Positions 5,135-19,881 of a DNA stretch of 45,041 nucleotides are shown piece by piece (within the stretch, counting starts at the first letter, position 1; each line of letters starts with the position of its first letter). A program made the translations under genes and the position numbers. The stretch is from a virus (Duplodnaviria > Heunggongvirae > Uroviricota > Caudoviricetes), in the IMG/VR virus record IMGVR_UViG_2802429245_000013, one strand, 5' to 3'. The notes under the pieces are model-generated. The model saw only the letters and a list, made by a program, of their open reading frames with translations. It was not told where the DNA came from and ran no database searches.

Positions 5135-5848
5135 TTAACCCGGATTTGGTTTCTTTGACGTGATCGTGCTGTTGCCGCTTTGAACCCCAGTCACATCGTG
5201 GCTGTGACCGCTGGCGCTGACACCTTTTATCATCGCGTCGTTTTGCACAGTAAGCGGGCCAATCAGCGAAGCAGTTGTATCCTTCATCTGGGCTTTGTCC
5301 TGGACGATCGGTCCGTTGAGGTGAATTTGACCGTTCATGAAGATATCTTCGGCCTCGAGGTAAACAGCTTTCGACTTTAGCCTGATTTCTTCCGGTGCCA
5401 CCGTTACCGAGCTACTGCCGTCCTCTGTTTTGAGGATCGCGCCATCCGGACCGTACAAAACGATTTTTTGCGGATCTTCGTCGGACCAGTCCTTGTTTGC
5501 CAGTGGCACGAAAAACAGTGGAGTGAGCGACATCGAGTAAGAAAGCGTCGCCATACCGGTTCCCAATCCGGACACACCGCGCAGGGATACATCAGCGGCA
5601 ATTGTTACTCCTCGATCGCCCGGCTGTATCGGGTAACGAATATACGGGAATGTGGCGACAGGGATTGTTATCTGCGGAAAGTTGATCCCCTCCGGCAGCA
5701 TATCAAACTGAACTGTCACTATCTGCCCGCTGACACCGACAACATGGCAGGGCAATTCACGGCCTTTAAGCTCGGCTTGCTGGTTGCCGGAAAAGGACAC
5801 CATTTCCGAAAAGCGTTGGAGAGGTAGTCGTTTTTGAGCGTTTGACAT
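5135..5848 (-). CDS. Baseplate spike / assembly protein V-like, 237 aa
   Basis: ORF track; position after hub gene; Gly/Ser-rich C-terminus typical of spike proteins. Confidence 0.5.
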   Translation of the reverse strand: MSNAQKRLPLQRFSEMVSFSGNQQAELKGRELPCHVVGVSGQIVTVQFDMLPEGINFPQITIPVATFPYIRYPIQPGDRGVTIAADVSLRGVSGLGTGMATLSYSMSLTPLFFVPLANKDWSDEDPQKIVLYGPDGAILKTEDGSSSVTVAPEEIRLKSKAVYLEAEDIFMNGQIHLNGPIVQDKAQMKDTTASLIGPLTVQNDAMIKGVSASGHSHDVTGVQSGNSTITSKKPNPG

Positions 5849-6855
5849 TACACCCTCACCCAGTTTTCAGCATACGCCTCGAACACTGTCACCCATGCAT
5901 CACCATCGGCCGTCAGATACGAGCCAATGTGTCTGACAGATTTAACCATAAATTTTCCGGTAAACGTGGTCGAGTTTTTGGAGATAACGCTAGGAGCCAT
6001 TGTATTAGCCATCACAATCGACGCTGCACCTGAATATAGCCCCTCCGGTAGTTTAACCACATCACCACATCTGATATCACCTCTCATTGGGCATTTGAAA
6101 CTGACAGTAAACGGCTCAATCCAAGTCGGCTGTCCAACCAGTTCATGGGCATGAATTGTTTTAGGTTCTCCCCACTTTGCCGACACGTTATCGTAAATTC
6201 GTATTCTGTCGGAAAGAATGCTGATGGCTATTCCGCTATATTTCGCATCACGCATCATCGCTATGGATGCGTTTTTTACGACCATCGCTAACGAGCCAAT
6301 ATTCTTATAGGACGCAGCCCATCTCTCAGGTAAAACAAGGCTGTCATTGACCAGACATTCAATCTTTTTTTTAGGAAAAGCTTCTTTCAGTGCACGTGCG
6401 ATAACATCCCCTACTTTCTCACCAGCTTCACCTTTACCCTCGATTGAGAAAGGGCTTCCATCTTCTTTTTTTCTGAGCGTTGGATTAATAACCAGATTCA
6501 ACGTCTGGTTGGTGCCAATCCAGTTAGCATAAGCCAGATAGACTTCACCGTAGATGATTTCCCCCTGCTGCTCAGGGTTGGCCAGAGGCAATCCTTCTGA
6601 AAACCCACCCCGCATTCTTACAATACACCCTTGCAAGTTAACGCTCTGTTTAAGCATATCGAGCGGTAAACCATATATCGCAAGCATGGTTCCCGAGTTC
6701 ACCACATCAAGTCCAGTCACCTGCACGTCAAATTCAATATGTAACCCACACCCGGGTGTTTTACTGGTATCAAAAGGCCCGATAGGTTTACCGTTGCAAT
6801 CCACTGGCGGCTTGCCTGTTTTAGGATTGATGATTTCCAGTCGGTAATAGCGCAT
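5848..6855 (-). CDS. Baseplate hub protein (Mu P / late control D-like position), 335 aa
   Basis: ORF track; start overlaps upstream stop; contractile-tail gene order. Confidence 0.45.
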   Translation of the reverse strand: MRYYRLEIINPKTGKPPVDCNGKPIGPFDTSKTPGCGLHIEFDVQVTGLDVVNSGTMLAIYGLPLDMLKQSVNLQGCIVRMRGGFSEGLPLANPEQQGEIIYGEVYLAYANWIGTNQTLNLVINPTLRKKEDGSPFSIEGKGEAGEKVGDVIARALKEAFPKKKIECLVNDSLVLPERWAASYKNIGSLAMVVKNASIAMMRDAKYSGIAISILSDRIRIYDNVSAKWGEPKTIHAHELVGQPTWIEPFTVSFKCPMRGDIRCGDVVKLPEGLYSGAASIVMANTMAPSVISKNSTTFTGKFMVKSVRHIGSYLTADGDAWVTVFEAYAENWVRV

Positions 6856-7121
6856 TACGAAACCTCAAACTGATTAGAACTTTCACGAAAAACGAGTTTC
6901 CCCGGCGAGCAAGGCAGCGCCAGATTGATGTCGTAATTGTCAGGTGACGCGATCAACGGTGTGTACACAATCACGTCGCCAGAACTGTCTTTCAGTTCCA
7001 GGTAGTAACGATTTGCATACAGATTAAACGGAACGCGGGCGAATGTTTCATATTCTCCGATTCTGGCCGTGAACTGAAACGGACCTCGCCCGTCCGGTTT
7101 GAAAGGAATTAACGTTGTCAT
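6855..7121 (-). CDS. Tail protein, 88 aa
   Basis: ORF track; translationally coupled within tail operon. Confidence 0.35.
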   Translation of the reverse strand: MTTLIPFKPDGRGPFQFTARIGEYETFARVPFNLYANRYYLELKDSSGDVIVYTPLIASPDNYDINLALPCSPGKLVFRESSNQFEVS

Positions 7122-7786
7122 AAGCCAATACCAAACTCCTGCACGACCTGGTTCTTAATACCTGACCACGATAGCGGACCGTCTGACGGCATCCCTTTAT
7201 CAAATTTATCCAGAACATTCGCCAGCGTCTTTACTGTTTGTTCGACAGACGACAATGGTTGCTCAAACTCAATCTGCCAGGTGTGCTGAACCTGCTTGTT
7301 CTGCTCAGAGAAACCGGATGTATCGATAAACGACCGCATCAGGCAGCGCGTGTAGATAAACGAGGGAGTCAGAACGGTGTAACAACCGCCATACTGGTTA
7401 TGCATATCAAGCGCCATTTTCAGCGCCGTGAACGTCATTCCCTTCGTGGTGTAGCCACCGTCCTCCGTTGATGCCGGACGGATCATCTGCATGGCTACCC
7501 GATTGGGCTTCCTGACGGTCGCATTCGCTGCCGTTACCTGGTTATAGAAATTCAGGTTACAAAGATCCTGCTGGACTAACGTTGTCCCCGCCATCGGGGT
7601 AAACGCCGCCATCGAACGTGTGCGTATCTCGCCATGCAGCAGACCGTTCGTGATGCTTAGCCCTTCAGTCAAAACAGCAATCGGCATCACCCCACCTGGA
7701 ATTTTCGACGCTATGCCGTCAACCAAAAGAATGGGCGAGACTTCAAACGCCAGTTTGAAAGCCTGTCCAAAGTAATTAAGTGACAT
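7118..7786 (-). CDS. Tail protein, 222 aa (between tape measure and hub)
   Basis: ORF track; operon context. Confidence 0.4.
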   Translation of the reverse strand: MSLNYFGQAFKLAFEVSPILLVDGIASKIPGGVMPIAVLTEGLSITNGLLHGEIRTRSMAAFTPMAGTTLVQQDLCNLNFYNQVTAANATVRKPNRVAMQMIRPASTEDGGYTTKGMTFTALKMALDMHNQYGGCYTVLTPSFIYTRCLMRSFIDTSGFSEQNKQVQHTWQIEFEQPLSSVEQTVKTLANVLDKFDKGMPSDGPLSWSGIKNQVVQEFGIGL

Positions 7787-7789
7787 GGT

Positions 7790-9907
7790 TTACCCCGGTA
7801 TTTGTTGCATTCCGGCGAGTTGTGCCAGTATATCTGAACCTGGTTTTTGTTGAACTTCGAGCCTGATTACCTGAGAAGCATTATTTGATGAATATACGTT
7901 CCCCCGGTTCATTGCCAGCGCCCGCATCACATCATCGCCACTTACAGCACGAGCGGCGGCCCCATTTTCATGGTTAATAATGCCCTGAATTAGCTTTCTC
8001 ATTAGCTCAAAATTAGAACCATCGATTTTCTCCTTAACACCTAATCCGGTGTACTGAGAGAGATAACTTTTATAGGACGATGTGTTATTTCCATCAGATG
8101 AAGGGGCATAAATATCAATAATCTGATCAATCGTATTTTTGCCGCGCTTCAGATATAGCATGACCTGTCGATCCAACGCAGCAATACCTTCCAGCATCGT
8201 CGGGAAGCTGGCAAAACGGGCATTTGGCCCCGATTCCAGGGTCGCCCCTTTTTGTCCTGCGAAATTAAGGTTTCCGGGATTGTTATTCCTGATCCCTCTG
8301 GATAAATATGCTGACCTGTTTACATTGTTTGAATATTCCTGCAATCCGTTTGCTGTCGCCACTCCCGGAATATCCATAGCAATTTCAGGCGTTCCCTGAA
8401 CGGTATTTTTACGCCCAAGATCGGTATCAATACCTATCCAGCGAAGCGCATCACCAACATTTCTCTTGGTGTAGTCCCATGATGAATTTGCCGAAGCGAT
8501 GATATTTTCGTGATCCTTATACGCATAAGCACCATAAGCCATTGCCGCAGAGATCAACGGATGCCTCATCATCGCAGTTACAACCGCACTCGCCACTCCA
8601 GTGAAAGCCCCGCTTCCTCCGGCAATAACCGCAGCCCCAAAAAGCCAGGGATGCTCAGCCGCAAAACCTACAAATCCGCCAAGAGCCTTAGTGACCTTTG
8701 CAACATTTCCGGCAAAATTATTCAGGTCGTTATTAAAATCCGGGCCATTTACGTACTTACCAAGCTTATCCAGCCCCGTTCCAACATCAGTCAGAATCCT
8801 TTTAAAGTTCTCACCATTCATGAAATTCAAGGCAGCATTCGTAGTACCATCAGAAATTCTGATTAAAGCGTCTGCATTCCCCGCCATAGCTCCTTGAAAT
8901 CCACTGGTCAGTCGATCCCAGTTATTTTCCAGGTTACTGGTAAGATTCTGATATTTACTTGTATGTGCAGATGTGAGCAACGAGTCATTCTGAGAAGCTC
9001 GCGATAAAAACTCTTTGTTGAGTTCAGGTATTTTGTCCTGATATTTGACTAACTGGTTAGCAAGACCAAAATTTACCCATCCAAGGCCACGGCCTCTGAG
9101 CATGCTCTGAGTAAGCCCGGAACCTTCATATTCCTTTGCAAGAGCAGCGACTCTTTCTAACAACACAGGGAGATTTTCTGCTGCCCCTTTTTTAGGATTT
9201 ATCCCTAACCCAATTAGCCCGTTGTAGGCAGGATGCTGAGTGTCATTCTGCGCGGCTGCCAGTGTATTGAGCAAATTACCAACACCGGAAAAATAAGGCG
9301 AATAGGTACTCTCTGCCGCCTTTAATTCTCCCGGCGTTGCCACAAGCTCATCTGCATTTTTCTGTTTTTCTACAACACTACGGGCCATCATGCCAAAGCC
9401 AAACGGCCCGGCAACGCCCATAACCGCAAGTTTTGTCCCCCACGATACGGTGGTTTTAAACAGGTTGTTTAATCTCGAAGTGGTCGTCCGTAGCGTAGAA
9501 TTGATCTGCTTGTAAGTTTTCAGCGTCTGTTTGGCGTTTTTCCCCAGCCCGCTGAGGTACTTATCAAACATCGTTTCGCCGCGACCTTTATAGTTGCTCA
9601 CCAGCGAATCCGCTGTTTTTCCGCTGCCAACAAAGCGCCCTTTTTCATCCCTTAAACGTCCATCACTGGACGCAGCCGGAACTGGCGCAGGTGAAGACGG
9701 TTTCCTGGGAGCCTGATTGGCTTCTCCGCCTGTGGTTGTCTGCCGGGCGCCACCTCCCTGACCTGTATTTGAAGGTATTTTAAGCGGCGTCCCGGCAGGA
9801 CCAATCATCAGCCCGTTGCGATACTTTTCAAATATCGCCTCAAGCCGCTTGAGGTGTTCTTCATTAACATCCAGCGTCAGAACTGGCATCTGGTTACCAG
9901 CCATCAC
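7790..9907 (-). CDS. Tail tape measure protein, 705 aa
   Basis: ORF track; large Gly/Ala-rich protein directly downstream of the frameshifted chaperone pair. Confidence 0.6.
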   Translation of the reverse strand: MMAGNQMPVLTLDVNEEHLKRLEAIFEKYRNGLMIGPAGTPLKIPSNTGQGGGARQTTTGGEANQAPRKPSSPAPVPAASSDGRLRDEKGRFVGSGKTADSLVSNYKGRGETMFDKYLSGLGKNAKQTLKTYKQINSTLRTTTSRLNNLFKTTVSWGTKLAVMGVAGPFGFGMMARSVVEKQKNADELVATPGELKAAESTYSPYFSGVGNLLNTLAAAQNDTQHPAYNGLIGLGINPKKGAAENLPVLLERVAALAKEYEGSGLTQSMLRGRGLGWVNFGLANQLVKYQDKIPELNKEFLSRASQNDSLLTSAHTSKYQNLTSNLENNWDRLTSGFQGAMAGNADALIRISDGTTNAALNFMNGENFKRILTDVGTGLDKLGKYVNGPDFNNDLNNFAGNVAKVTKALGGFVGFAAEHPWLFGAAVIAGGSGAFTGVASAVVTAMMRHPLISAAMAYGAYAYKDHENIIASANSSWDYTKRNVGDALRWIGIDTDLGRKNTVQGTPEIAMDIPGVATANGLQEYSNNVNRSAYLSRGIRNNNPGNLNFAGQKGATLESGPNARFASFPTMLEGIAALDRQVMLYLKRGKNTIDQIIDIYAPSSDGNNTSSYKSYLSQYTGLGVKEKIDGSNFELMRKLIQGIINHENGAAARAVSGDDVMRALAMNRGNVYSSNNASQVIRLEVQQKPGSDILAQLAGMQQIPG

Positions 9908-10197
9908 AATACTCCTGCGGGATTTTTGAATTTGAGCAGCTCACGAAACTGAGCTGCCGTTTTTACATTCAGACCGGAATCTGCACAGATGTCTCTGAAT
10001 CCGGCTCCGGCTGAGTAGTCGAGGATGTCGCTGATGACGTGTTCGCCGTCGCGCCAGAACTGGCGGCTGATTTCAATGTCGGCAATGAAACGATCCATTC
10101 CGTAAGATTCAATGACGAGCATTGAGTGCTCCATATTCCATTGACCACATCCATAGTCCCCTTCGCCTGCTCCGGTGAATTTATCGACGAGACGCAT
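9904..10197 (-). CDS. Tail assembly chaperone -1 frame extension (T-like part of G-T fusion)
   Basis: ORF in -1 frame relative to 9969..10598, opening right at the T8 run and ending 3 nt before tape measure start. Confidence 0.45.
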   Translation of the reverse strand: MRLVDKFTGAGEGDYGCGQWNMEHSMLVIESYGMDRFIADIEISRQFWRDGEHVISDILDYSAGAGFRDICADSGLNVKTAAQFRELLKFKNPAGVL

Positions 10198-10598
10198 GTA
10201 AAAAAAACGAGTTCACCCGCAACATCATCCAGCTCAACGATTTCACGCTCCAGCGCCATATCAAGAGGGATTGTGTCGTAACCTTTGCCCTCCACCGGAT
10301 AAACAAGGTTTGCCAGGCGAATTATTTCGTTCACCAGCGTATTACGAACTCCCTTATCATCGTCCCAGATACCGGAATCACGCGAGATCCGCTCCAGCAT
10401 CAGAAAAGCGATACGCGGACCCGCAACGACGCCAAGACCTTCAGAAAAAATGGCAGAAAAGGTTTTACTCAGAATGAAGAAATGCTCTTTAAACACCTCT
10501 TTGCTGATCGGCGTGGCATGGATCCAGCCATTACCCTTTTCTGTCCGGACAGGAATAATCAGATTCAGATTTCGGGAGATTTTCATACCAGATCCCAC
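9969..10598 (-). CDS. Tail assembly chaperone (G-like, zero frame)
   Basis: ORF track 209 aa; located between tube and tape measure genes; contains run of eight T on the coding strand. Confidence 0.5.
   Translation of the reverse strand: MGSGMKISRNLNLIIPVRTEKGNGWIHATPISKEVFKEHFFILSKTFSAIFSEGLGVVAGPRIAFLMLERISRDSGIWDDDKGVRNTLVNEIIRLANLVYPVEGKGYDTIPLDMALEREIVELDDVAGELVFFTCVSSINSPEQAKGTMDVVNGIWSTQCSSLNLTEWIVSLPTLKSAASSGATANTSSATSSTTQPEPDSETSVQIPV
10200..10207 (-). other. Candidate -1 ribosomal slippery site (eight consecutive T on coding strand)
   Basis: Plus strand aaaaaaaa at 10200-10207; zero frame reads GTT TTT TTT ACA, -1 frame continues into MRLVDKF... ORF. Confidence 0.45.
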
Positions 10599-11026
10599 AT
10601 TTCAGAGTTGATGTAATACGTACCGGTAATGGTGATGGCCACACCCGGCTCGCCCCCGGCGAAGGTCATATCCTGCACGTTGGTGATCGCCGTGTTATAG
10701 ATATCGAAGTCACCGAATACCGTGCTGTCGCTATACACTTTTGCGTCGCCGATCGTGGCGTTTTTTTCCCATTGCGCCTTGAATTGTTTTCCCAGCGCCT
10801 GGCTACGCAGCAGATGAACACGCGCCTGTAAAATCATGTATGGCTGCGGCGACTGCACAGCTCCCGTCATAGCGGGTAAAAACTCCGTGATATTGCCCTG
10901 AAAGGACAATTCGACGCCTTCTTTTGCCAGAAATGAGGCGGACACATTCAGTTCGGAATGAGAGGTGAATTTAACGCTGGCGCGAACCCGGTTAAGGGTG
11001 CCAACGGGAATCATTGGATTAGGCAC
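10583..11026 (-). CDS. Tail tube protein, 147 aa
   Basis: ORF track; small protein immediately after sheath gene. Confidence 0.55.
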   Translation of the reverse strand: MPNPMIPVGTLNRVRASVKFTSHSELNVSASFLAKEGVELSFQGNITEFLPAMTGAVQSPQPYMILQARVHLLRSQALGKQFKAQWEKNATIGDAKVYSDSTVFGDFDIYNTAITNVQDMTFAGGEPGVAITITGTYYINSEMWDLV

Positions 11027-11037
11027 GGTTCAGTCCC

Positions 11038-12375
11038 TCACGAAAGCTGCATTGTCACATTGATGTTAAAAATGATTTCGACAAATCCGCGCATCGGCGT
11101 ATAGGAGGCCGAAAGGCCTGCATAACGCCCGATACCGTAATCATTCGGATTAGTGTTGATATACTGGCGGAAAGGCACTGCATCGACGACAGGCTGGCCG
11201 TTGACCAGGCCGTAAGATACGCCCGTATTGAACACCGCCTGTGCGACCTGCTGTAGACGGTCGATCCCGTCCTGGTTGTAGTAAAGCGGGTTAATTGGGT
11301 TATTGCTGCCGTTGATCACCGTGTTGGCGAGCTGCATATCGACGTTAATCTGCACCCAGTCTACGGAATACCAGTACGTCATATCGTTACCGTCACTGGT
11401 AACGCCTTTCACCAGAATCGTGTTGGAAATTCCACCCTCAGCACCCGTATCGACGTAGTTAATATTCTGCTTTGTCATCGTGGCCAGAATGGAATTTTTG
11501 CCCTTGTGGGCGTTTACCGCCTGCAGATAGCGAAATGCCATCGGCGGCACCTTGTTGATTTCTGAAGGTGATGCGGAAACATAGTTCCACATTACGGCTG
11601 CTGCCGCGTTTGTCGCCGGGTACGTATCATCCGCCGTTGCAATAACCGACTTAATACCGGCATAAGGCGAAACGTAATTCGTGTCGTCCGGCGTTTTCGT
11701 CAGCACGAAGAAATACTGCATCGCTTCGTTGGCGGTGTGGAGTTTTGCCAGACTGATAAACTCTGCGTCACCATCCCACGGCTGCGGCACCAGATACGCA
11801 TAAAAACGCAGGAGCGGATCTTCCATATAAGCTTTCAGTGCAGCGATTTCCTTACTGATCCCGCCTTTCTGTACTCCCAGCTCCAGCAGGTAAATCCCAA
11901 CTGAATTTCCCTGGGCAAAAAACGTGTTTACTGCCGTCACCAGATTTTCACTGCCGACAATGGAAAACTGCCCCAGTGTCACTGGCGAACCGGAAAGCTG
12001 AGAATCAGCAATCGTCCAGGTCAGTGTTTTTTCATCCGTGACGGTAGCAGTATATTCGCCATTCCACGCGTCGGGCGAACACCCGGAAACAACAATTTTC
12101 ACCTCAGAACTGTTTTCGCGTCGGATGTTGCTCCCTTCCGGAAGCGTCATCGTAACGGTGACGTTTGCCGCAGATTTTCCTGCGGCAGCCGCCGACAACG
12201 CAGCAATCGGATTTTTAACCAGATCGTTAATATCCTGATTGCTGGTGAGTAATACAGGCTTCCCCGGCTCATGAGTCGTGGAGCCAAACGAGAGAACCGC
12301 AGACATCTGCTGCAAATTCGAGGGTATAGCCCCGATGGTCTGGGACACATTCACCGTGACGATATTAAATCCCAT
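11038..12375 (-). CDS. Tail sheath protein, 445 aa
   Basis: ORF track; size and order sheath-tube-chaperone-tape measure. Confidence 0.55.
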   Translation of the reverse strand: MGFNIVTVNVSQTIGAIPSNLQQMSAVLSFGSTTHEPGKPVLLTSNQDINDLVKNPIAALSAAAAGKSAANVTVTMTLPEGSNIRRENSSEVKIVVSGCSPDAWNGEYTATVTDEKTLTWTIADSQLSGSPVTLGQFSIVGSENLVTAVNTFFAQGNSVGIYLLELGVQKGGISKEIAALKAYMEDPLLRFYAYLVPQPWDGDAEFISLAKLHTANEAMQYFFVLTKTPDDTNYVSPYAGIKSVIATADDTYPATNAAAAVMWNYVSASPSEINKVPPMAFRYLQAVNAHKGKNSILATMTKQNINYVDTGAEGGISNTILVKGVTSDGNDMTYWYSVDWVQINVDMQLANTVINGSNNPINPLYYNQDGIDRLQQVAQAVFNTGVSYGLVNGQPVVDAVPFRQYINTNPNDYGIGRYAGLSASYTPMRGFVEIIFNINVTMQLS

Positions 12376-18500: not shown

Positions 18501-19881
18501 CAGGCGTCTCCTGCTTCGGTGGTTCATAATTCGCCAGCGCGTCCACATCAATGATGAGTGGAGCTTCGCCATAGGTTTGCGTGGCATTAACAAGGCTTGC
18601 CAGCCATTCAGTGACGGCGGCACGGTTTTCAGGATCAACCTGTGGCGACACGGCAGAGAAAAGTGCTATCGCCTGTTGAATCACTTTACTGTCGCTTTCC
18701 CGGCGTTTGTCCGGCGACTCCTCCACCAGCTCCTGCCATGTCGCGGTAAATTCACGTCGCCACTGGTAAAACGTGGTTTTATAGTCATCAGTTATGATGT
18801 CCGGGTAATCATTTTTCAGCGACTGATAAAATTCCTCGTTCCAGGCGATGTACTGCACCAGGCGTTCGAAATAATCCATCACGGGTTCAATCTGCTGGCG
18901 TACACCATCGATATACTGGCTGATGGCTTTCGAATCTTCGGTCCCCTCACCGAAACCATTCGAAAAGGCTTCCTCTTTGATGAGGATCGCCGGAACGTCA
19001 CTCCCTGACGCAATATCGGAAATAATATTGTCGCGTGCAGCGTTTAGCGCACCATCGATGTTTTGTAGATTTAGCGAGGTAACGTCCTCATCCTTCCCGA
19101 TACTAAGCACACCTTTATTTTTTGCCTCTTTGACGTTTTCCCTTTTTCGTCCCGTGGCGGCAGCCATGAGCCCGTCAAGTTTCGAACCGTACTGCACAAC
19201 TTTAGCTACCAGTACGCCCGCCTTCTGGCTGACGAGATCATTCGCCTCCATCGTGTTGATATAGGATTTCAGGGAATAAAGAACGCGCTGAAACACACTT
19301 CGTCCGGTGAATCCGAACGATGAACTCTGAAACTCCAGATAAATCGGTGTGCCGTTGAAGATTTTCAGTGTGCGTGACGGATGCCAGTCTTTTCCGCCAA
19401 TCTTCAGTTTTTTATTGGCTTCCTGGAAAAACGGGCTGTTGGGGTTCTGGTCAGTCACCATCGAACCGGAAGCGTTCAACGGGTCCCACGCGTTGATATA
19501 CACGTCATCTTCTGTCAGTCCGAACGTCGGAAGCGGTTCACGACATGAAACACTGTCGGTGCCCACGCCGATCGCTGCGGCACCGTAGCAACGAGACAGA
19601 AAAAACAGATTTTTAATCTTCTCGTTAACCTTCATACGTTCCCATACCTCCTGGAAACGCCGCACAACCCGCTCGTCAGGGTCTGTCTCCACGTTGTACT
19701 GGCGCGGCTTACACATCGCCATAAGTATGGGTTTTTCGACAAGTTTCCCGCCCAGCGGGTGGTACTGCCACAGCAGTTTACACAGTTCATAGCCAATGTC
19801 GGTTCCCGGCTGAATTTCTTCAGCCTCAAGAATGCGCATCAACGAAGAACTGAGATTTACAGAAATCTCGATCTCAGCCAT
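18445..19881 (-). CDS. Portal protein, 478 aa
   Basis: ORF track; size and position directly after terminase large subunit; acidic C-terminus. Confidence 0.6.
   Translation of the reverse strand: MAEIEISVNLSSSLMRILEAEEIQPGTDIGYELCKLLWQYHPLGGKLVEKPILMAMCKPRQYNVETDPDERVVRRFQEVWERMKVNEKIKNLFFLSRCYGAAAIGVGTDSVSCREPLPTFGLTEDDVYINAWDPLNASGSMVTDQNPNSPFFQEANKKLKIGGKDWHPSRTLKIFNGTPIYLEFQSSSFGFTGRSVFQRVLYSLKSYINTMEANDLVSQKAGVLVAKVVQYGSKLDGLMAAATGRKRENVKEAKNKGVLSIGKDEDVTSLNLQNIDGALNAARDNIISDIASGSDVPAILIKEEAFSNGFGEGTEDSKAISQYIDGVRQQIEPVMDYFERLVQYIAWNEEFYQSLKNDYPDIITDDYKTTFYQWRREFTATWQELVEESPDKRRESDSKVIQQAIALFSAVSPQVDPENRAAVTEWLASLVNATQTYGEAPLIIDVDALANYEPPKQETPDGNFQPGGEEEETDQDAI

Follow-up and report, generated by a model that had tools for sequence, protein, structure and literature searches.

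A probable programmed -1 frameshift at a T-run in the tail module of an Escherichia coli prophage

Frameshifted tail assembly chaperones are expected upstream of phage tape measure genes. The two proteins of a G/GT-type pair have a fixed ratio, are both required to assemble the tail and are absent from the virion. The gpG/gpGT frameshift of phage lambda (Levin 1993; Xu, Hendrix and Duda 2004, 2013, 2014) is summarised in PMC5009743, and P2, a contractile-tailed phage of E. coli, makes E and E+E' from a TTTTTTG site with no downstream structure (Christie et al. 2002; PMC3091744). Here, we have analysed a stretch of 45,041 nucleotides (nt) from a virus of the Caudoviricetes (IMG/VR record IMGVR_UViG_2802429245_000013, whole length, hereafter the window), an E. 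coli prophage with all of its tail-module genes on the minus strand. Between the genes of the putative tail tube and the tape measure protein we found two overlapping open reading frames (ORFs), the second one in the -1 frame, with a heptamer in X_XXY_YYZ phase inside the overlap (Table 1). This pair probably encodes a tail assembly chaperone produced in two G/GT-like forms by programmed -1 ribosomal slippage. The programmed -1 shift is well supported, since the phased heptamer is invariant, the domain encoded in the -1 frame is conserved and this domain has no conserved start of its own.

The fused protein predicted from both ORFs was compared with 1.84 billion cluster representatives, which gave 626 matches. 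Most of them were 186–205 amino acids (aa) long and aligned only to residues 1–130 of the query, a few were full-length as one ORF and some corresponded to the -1 part only. DNA for 180 loci was taken from genomes, viral contigs, metagenomes and public assemblies, and a profile search of genome contigs with a 7-sequence alignment gave three loci. We analysed 175 loci together with the window, 116 of them distinct. Hidden Markov models for the N-domain shared by the two products, for the G tail (the part specific to the frame-0 product, G) and for the T domain encoded in the -1 frame all matched in 172 of the 175. The lineage tests were carried out on 27 lineages with less than 70% N-domain identity and G+C contents of 31–65%.

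Anatomy and conservation of the slip site

A previous sequence-only reading of the window had described two ORFs overlapping in the 0 and -1 frames with a run of eight T, and this was confirmed (T8 at 10207..10200, GT T_TTT_TTT A). The coding strand around the run reads GAA CTC GTT TTT TTT ACA TGC in frame-0 codons (A8 on the plus strand). As the frame-0 codons are GTT TTT TTT, the last seven Ts form T_TTT_TTT in the X_XXY_YYZ phase. The frame-0 ORF starts at ATG 10586..10584, which overlaps the stop of the tube gene as ATGA, and ends at TGA 9971..9969; the ORF listing extends it upstream to GTG 10598. The same reading had placed the opening of the -1 ORF exactly at T8 and had it stop 3 nt short of the tape measure gene, and the position of the stop needed correction. 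The -1 frame opens next to the run, two codons upstream of it (TGA 10215..10213), and stays open from 10212 to TGA 9906..9904. Its stop shares one base with the tape measure ATG 9904..9902 (TGATG), and overlaps an alternative GTG start (9907..9905) by two bases. An AGGAG is found 7 nt 5' of this ATG, and the ATG equivalent to it is the start picked by PGAP in the relatives. Coupling of the T-part stop to the start of the tape measure gene was seen across loci. A -1 slip at the run would give a product of 227 aa with AGELVFF joined to YMRLVDK at the junction. The junction peptide of this predicted fusion is EIVELDDVAGELVFFYMR and its frame-0 counterpart is EIVELDDVAGELVFFTCVSSINSPEQAK.

The T8 run was invariant, with both frames open, in the eight close relatives aligned (86–99% DNA identity). 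Over the larger set, a run of at least seven T in the same phase was present in 116 of the 116 distinct loci, with N-domain identities down to ca. 30%. The run was T8 (NTT TTT TTT) in 92 and T7 (NNT TTT TTT) in 19, and one locus (L160) had T9 followed by C. In all these 112 loci the G tail is in frame 0 and the T domain in the -1 frame. In the four others a T9 run joins the N-domain and the T domain into one ORF, and the G tail is displaced to the +1 frame. The heptamer was retained even in genomes of 60–65% GC. At the slip site the Phe codons of the 27 lineages were TTT in 54 of 54 cases versus 47% TTT elsewhere in the same domains (P ~2e-18), and the third base of the preceding codon was T in 27 of 27 (log10 P = -19.5), values that treat the lineages as strictly independent and thus overstate the exact significance, although the margin is very large. 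This third base stays T even though the residue that it helps to encode varies (V, I, S, T, C, A or G), and the local frequency of T at third positions in the tested lineages is as low as 4–9%. Except in L160, the bases after the run are A[CT] in every distinct locus, so that the -1 frame reads Tyr there instead of a TAA or TAG stop. In most distinct loci the -1 frame opens 5–32 nt before the run. This anatomy and its conservation can be read directly in the sequences.

The T9 variants with an in-frame fusion of N-domain and T domain, and the G tail in +1, were L008, L009, L079, L088, L179 and L180. L079 and L088 have flanks identical to those of T8 relatives. One fused protein of 227 aa (P0001), with the same sequence as the predicted fusion, was found in T9 assemblies from public data, in at least two samples (ERR200279 and SRR18964995). 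These variants may be due to miscalled homopolymers, to inactivating mutations or to true variation in length. We also considered the "fused" proteins of 226–233 aa as a natural single-ORF state and rejected it: three of them (P0002–P0004) switch frame at differing places, and two more (P0125 and P0128) come from T9 loci with the G tail intact in +1.

Two conserved frames downstream of the run

The T part is 93–118 codons long across the distinct loci and has a conserved motif, YG..RF.aD[IV][DE]..R.FWRDG...LDW...GF...FRQR. It has no conserved start or ribosome binding site of its own. An ATG adjoining the run is restricted to the enterobacterial clade (65 of 110 loci), outside this clade the first NTG is often ca. 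19–24 or more codons into the conserved T domain, and in 11 loci the T part lacks any ATG. In the window itself, no Shine-Dalgarno (SD) sequence was seen before the ATG of the T part (10197).

The length of frame 0 past the run had been overlooked in the first reading. Frame 0 stays open for 76 codons past the run in the window and for 53–92 in the relatives, so that the products, of 205 and 227 aa, do not represent a short and a long version. In the window, 37% of the zero-frame product lies past the slip site and is conserved there. The C-terminal ca. 60 residues of the relatives of about 190 aa share the pattern VFF[TIM].aSa.hk+......LWg.qtTsLN.TE[FYW]..SLp.sTet..sGe...SS[IVL]P-x. The G tail of the window consists of a helix, a Ser/Thr-rich linker and a C-terminus ending in SVQIPV. 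Independently of the length of the tail, G ends in S-S-[IVL]-P-x in 18 of the 27 lineages (the corresponding region of the window is 9969–9986), and the clade of the window has 17 extra codons in the G tail and keeps the [IVL]-P-x end. The C-terminus of G looks like a short docking peptide.

The structural models agree with a common N-domain followed by different C-terminal parts. AlphaFold (AF2) predicted the N-domain with pLDDT above 90 over residues ca. 20–140, as a beta-hairpin, helices, a second beta-hairpin and a long helix. This last helix passes through the slip site. In the model of the frame-0 product it goes on to about residue 157 and is followed by a disordered linker. The model of the -1 product has a disordered linker and then a helical domain with pLDDT of ca. 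75–83.

Among the close relatives, the variable sites 5' of the run were distributed over the frame-0 codon positions as [20,10,81], as expected for ordinary coding. The counts 3' of the run were [9,20,20] versus [20,9,20], i.e., symmetric between the frames. These symmetric and ambiguous counts were the first hint that both frames matter and led us to search for distant relatives. With the T-domain proteins fixed and their synonymous codons resampled, the chance that frame 0 stays open as far as it was seen to had a geometric mean of 0.095 per lineage, and the reverse test, with the G tails fixed, gave 0.05. The mean identity of the G tails across the 27 lineages is ca. 33%. Their mean pairwise identity was 0.344, against the 0.188 (sd 0.003) expected with T fixed (z = 47). 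In the same way, the identity in the -1 frame was 0.326 compared to 0.150 expected with the G tails fixed (z = 51). The conservation of neither frame can thus be a by-product of the other, and on this comparative evidence ca. 230 nt are truly dual-coding, with selection on both frames. The long, doubly conserved overlap makes the two predicted products alternative C-terminal forms of one protein.

From here we lean towards the view that the slip site determines which of two C-terminal modules is made, each of them selected and the two overlaid on the same 53–92 codons, and that the major product would have a partner-binding function of its own. As examples, the G tail could dock to the tube, the sheath or the tape measure protein, or could mask the N-domain. 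A rarer extension of this idea would be that changes between T8 and T9 in the DNA flip which of the products is made by default.

Mechanism and alternative explanations

According to the mechanism that we propose, most ribosomes would stay in frame 0 and produce the 205-aa protein, with its N-domain of ca. 129 aa and its 76-aa tail (a helix, a Ser/Thr-rich linker and I-P-V). A minority would slip back one base with tRNA-Phe in both the P and the A sites on U_UUU_UUU (10206..10200) and would read TAC next. The slipped ribosomes would produce a 227-aa protein with the same N-domain and a helical T domain of ca. 98 aa, and would end at the stop overlapping the tape measure start. By analogy with lambda gpG and gpGT, coating of the tape measure protein would fall to the N-domain, and tube subunits would be recruited by the T domain. 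The slippage, its efficiency, the binding partners and the chaperone functions are what we infer from the features described above.

Several points weigh against this interpretation. We found no sequence or fold match to the known tail assembly chaperones (TACs), including lambda gpG, P2 gpE, the TAC models of Pfam and NCBIfam and the solved TAC structures. As no chaperone homology is detectable, the chaperone role is argued from the position of the gene and the frameshift signature. The 227-aa product itself is a prediction made from sequence alone. In addition, A_AAA_AAG shifted more readily than U_UUU_UUU when the two were tested in E. coli constructs (PMC5009743). The search for a stimulatory RNA structure conserved 3' of the run in the 27 lineages was negative: the single-sequence fold downstream had z = +0.9, the minimum free energy z-scores averaged -0.35 over the lineages, alifold gave no consensus structure and Rfam gave no match for this region. 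An SD-like GGAGGT is present ca. 15 nt upstream in many lineages, but not in all and not in the window, which carries GCGGGTGA in its place (10220–10213). Finally, a run of 7–8 U could also support slippage by the RNA polymerase.

The perfect SD core (GGAGGT or GAGGT) ca. 15 nt 5' of the heptamer was observed in L014, L133, L136, L143, L149, L156 and others. It was found in many GC-rich lineages and was absent in AT-rich ones, and it coincides with conserved E-V-E codons. Some SD-like tetramer was found within 20 nt of the slip site in 24 of the 27 lineages. The upstream element may be a stimulator like that of dnaX or only a codon effect.

Transcriptional slippage is the alternative that survives best, although we consider it unlikely. 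In this case the RNA polymerase would add one U on the A8 template, and the resulting U9 messengers would be translated normally into the N+T fusion. This would fit with a site that is a pure homopolymer of 7–8, with the lack of a downstream stimulatory structure in the lineages searched and with the T9 variants encoding the fusion directly at the DNA level (L008, L009, L079 and L088, as well as P0001). The bacterial sites of this kind are covered by a review (PMC5009743). On the other hand, the runs are held at 7–8, never reaching nine or more without a flip of the frame, save in L160 with its T9 then C. The documented bacterial genes with transcriptional slippage, e.g., mxiE of Shigella and dnaX of Thermus, have runs of about nine or more. 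The minimal form of the site, found in the 19 T7 loci, is the exact phased heptamer for tandem slippage, and the related TTTTTTG of P2 has been described as a translational frameshift site that works without a hairpin (PMC3091744; P2 record). The codon phase cannot separate a ribosomal from a transcriptional slip, as the coding of both frames already dictates where the run ends on its 3' side. Taken together, slippage of the ribosome is the likelier mechanism.

It is very improbable that the 205-aa ORF and a 97-aa ORF starting at ATG 10197 are two ordinary genes, translated separately, with the T-run as an incidental feature. In the clade of the window there is indeed an ATG one codon after the run, and PHROGs lists the 97-aa ORF as a family of its own (phrog_14324). 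However, ATG 10197 has no SD and its equivalent is absent in most distant lineages, in which the T domain and the T-run persist. Two separate genes would also leave unexplained the invariance of the heptamer at synonymous sites and the opening of the -1 frame just before the run. A sequencing error or a pseudogene, i.e., a true gene that is a single T9 ORF of 227 codons with T8 as a miscall or an inactivating change, is hardly credible at all, as the four "fused" proteins of 226–227 aa among 428 close homologues and the four fused T9 loci stand against a T7/T8 two-frame layout in 111 of the 116 distinct loci (isolates, complete genomes and metagenomes from many platforms) and a frame-0 tail itself under protein-level selection, and three of the four fused proteins (P0002–P0004) change frame elsewhere, as random indels would.

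The tail module, its relatives and known systems

The features of the tail module are listed in Table 1. The contractile nature of the tail, already recognized in the first reading, was corroborated by the sheath gene upstream (phrog_205). Sequence searches in Pfam, NCBIfam and PDB gave no match for the chaperone, tube or sheath proteins. In every locus examined a gene of the size of the tube gene was located between the sheath and chaperone genes, and the order sheath, tube, chaperone and tape measure was also found in L008, L010, L175 and L176.

Table 1. Position of the tail-module genes and of the slip-site elements in the window
Feature	Coordinates	Strand	Remarks
Tail sheath	11038..12375	-	445 aa; phrog_205 "tail sheath", E = 5.1e-55
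Putative tail tube	10583..11026	-	147 aa; assigned by position only; phrog_6566, function unassigned in PHROGs
Frame-0 candidate chaperone ORF (G)	9969..10586	-	205 aa, shared N-domain plus G-specific tail; phrog_11810, unknown function
Shared N-domain	10200..10586	-	codons 1–129 (M1..F129), in both predicted products
Upstream TGA of the -1 frame	10213..10215	-	closes the -1 frame two codons before the T-run
T8 run	10200..10207	-	heptamer T_TTT_TTT at 10206..10200; P-site TTT 10205..10203, A-site TTT 10202..10200; next base A
-1 segment (T part)	9904..10200	-	TAC 10200..10198 to TTG 9909..9907, 98 codons; TGA 9906..9904; phrog_14324
G-specific tail, frame 0	9969..10199	-	76 codons plus stop; overlaps the first ~77 codons of the T part
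Tape measure with lytic transglycosylase domain	7790..9904	-	phrog_7694 and phrog_2276, tape measure

The tail region is 91–95% identical to those of Escherichia phage Rac-SA53 and Actinobacillus phage vB_Apl-pPE4, and a related region was found in 92 of 5426 complete E. coli genomes (86–99% identity). The records of the close relatives annotate only the 618-nt frame-0 ORF, as a "hypothetical protein", and leave a gap of 64 nt before the tape measure gene. Among isolated phages, the two-frame arrangement was present in Klebsiella phage Chronis (T8) and Pantoea phage PdC23 (T7), and in RothC/D by tblastn; in all of them the genes are annotated as hypothetical. The record PP818812.1 ("Actinobacillus phage vB_Apl-pPE4", our L002) is 95% identical at the DNA level to the E. 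coli prophage tail module over 9700–11100 of the window. Such a likeness would not be expected with a host from the Pasteurellaceae, and it may be worth verifying the host assignment. Another relative of the prophage region, with 87% identity, was found in NZ_CP026085.1 and NZ_CM135829.1 (both labelled E. coli DH5alpha) and in E. coli W (NC_017664).

Two other observations were made downstream of the tape measure gene. A second run, A8 in the minus strand (6365–6372), is located inside a 335-aa ORF (5848..6855), in the context CCT AAA AAA AAG ATT. It holds in the X_XXY_YYZ phase A_AAA_AAG, the heptamer reported as the most shift-prone in E. coli. A slip there would meet a -1 TGA after two codons, giving a truncated product of ca. 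165 aa of this hub-like baseplate gene. The other concerns the baseplate itself. In L010 (5518–6538) a 90-aa protein encoded downstream of the tape measure gene matches PF22479 (Pam3_gp18, the baseplate "plug"), and the window has an 88-aa ORF at the equivalent place, within 6855–7786, which suggests a simple baseplate similar to that of Pam3.

If the interpretation holds, an inferred function and a correct gene model would become available for a family that is "hypothetical" everywhere and comprises at least 626 clusters at 50% identity, including genes of Klebsiella and Pantoea phage isolates that belong to the proposed order Felixvirales, which is associated with the gut. None of the annotations that we examined contains the 227-aa product. 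The chaperone frameshift would also be extended to a lineage without detectable homology to known chaperones. The two-frame overlap of ca. 230 nt offers a compact natural system in which to study the evolutionary constraints imposed by overlapping coding, and tail modules of this kind can easily be searched for with the invariant T7/T8 heptamer as a marker. A question that is raised is the role of the major chaperone form beyond coating the tape measure protein. Within an incomplete coverage of the literature, we found no paper describing a frameshift in this chaperone family, and a chaperone frameshift is not mentioned in the Pam3 structure paper or in the KlebPhaCol preprint on Chronis and RothC/D.

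With regard to gene content, the module resembles those of the minimal myophage Pam3 and of the proposed Felixvirales (Chronis, RothC/D and PdC23), with sheath, tube, chaperone, a tape measure protein with a lytic domain and a small set of baseplate genes. The G/GT chaperone frameshift suggested in the first reading stands with respect to the position of the gene, the invariant heptamer, the -1 domain without a start of its own and the coupled stop. It does not extend to homology or to the zero-frame geometry. Like in lambda, the gene is located between the major tail and tape measure genes, a common N-terminus would be shared through a -1 shift on X_XXY_YYZ, no obligatory stimulatory structure is evident and the -1 ORF reaches up to or into the tape measure gene. 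Unlike in lambda, there is no sequence homology to G (hhalign probability 0.2), the heptamer is T_TTT_TTT instead of G_GGA_AAG and the tail is contractile. In lambda, G extends for 6 codons past its slip site (G at 9711..10133 and the T ORF from 10115), compared to the 76 conserved codons found here (53–92 in the relatives, versus 6–7 in lambda and P2). With such a long conserved frame 0 past the slip site, G cannot be simply a truncated GT in this case.

The similarities with P2 are the slip site in a T-run, the -1 shift and the lack of a downstream hairpin, and E' of P2 overlaps the tape measure gene T of that phage. However, there is no homology, and P2 E is a protein of 91 aa ending about 7 codons past the site (19685 versus an end at 19705), so that P2 has neither a long dual-coding overlap nor a separate conserved tail on its zero-frame product. 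The tau/gamma pair of E. coli dnaX is similar in that its two proteins share their N-terminus and are produced in a ratio set by tandem -1 slippage at a homopolymeric heptamer, and an upstream SD-like element (the GGAGGT of many relatives) may contribute here too. In dnaX, though, the shifted frame stops almost at once and a strong downstream hairpin is needed, whereas in the tail module described here both frames are long and conserved.

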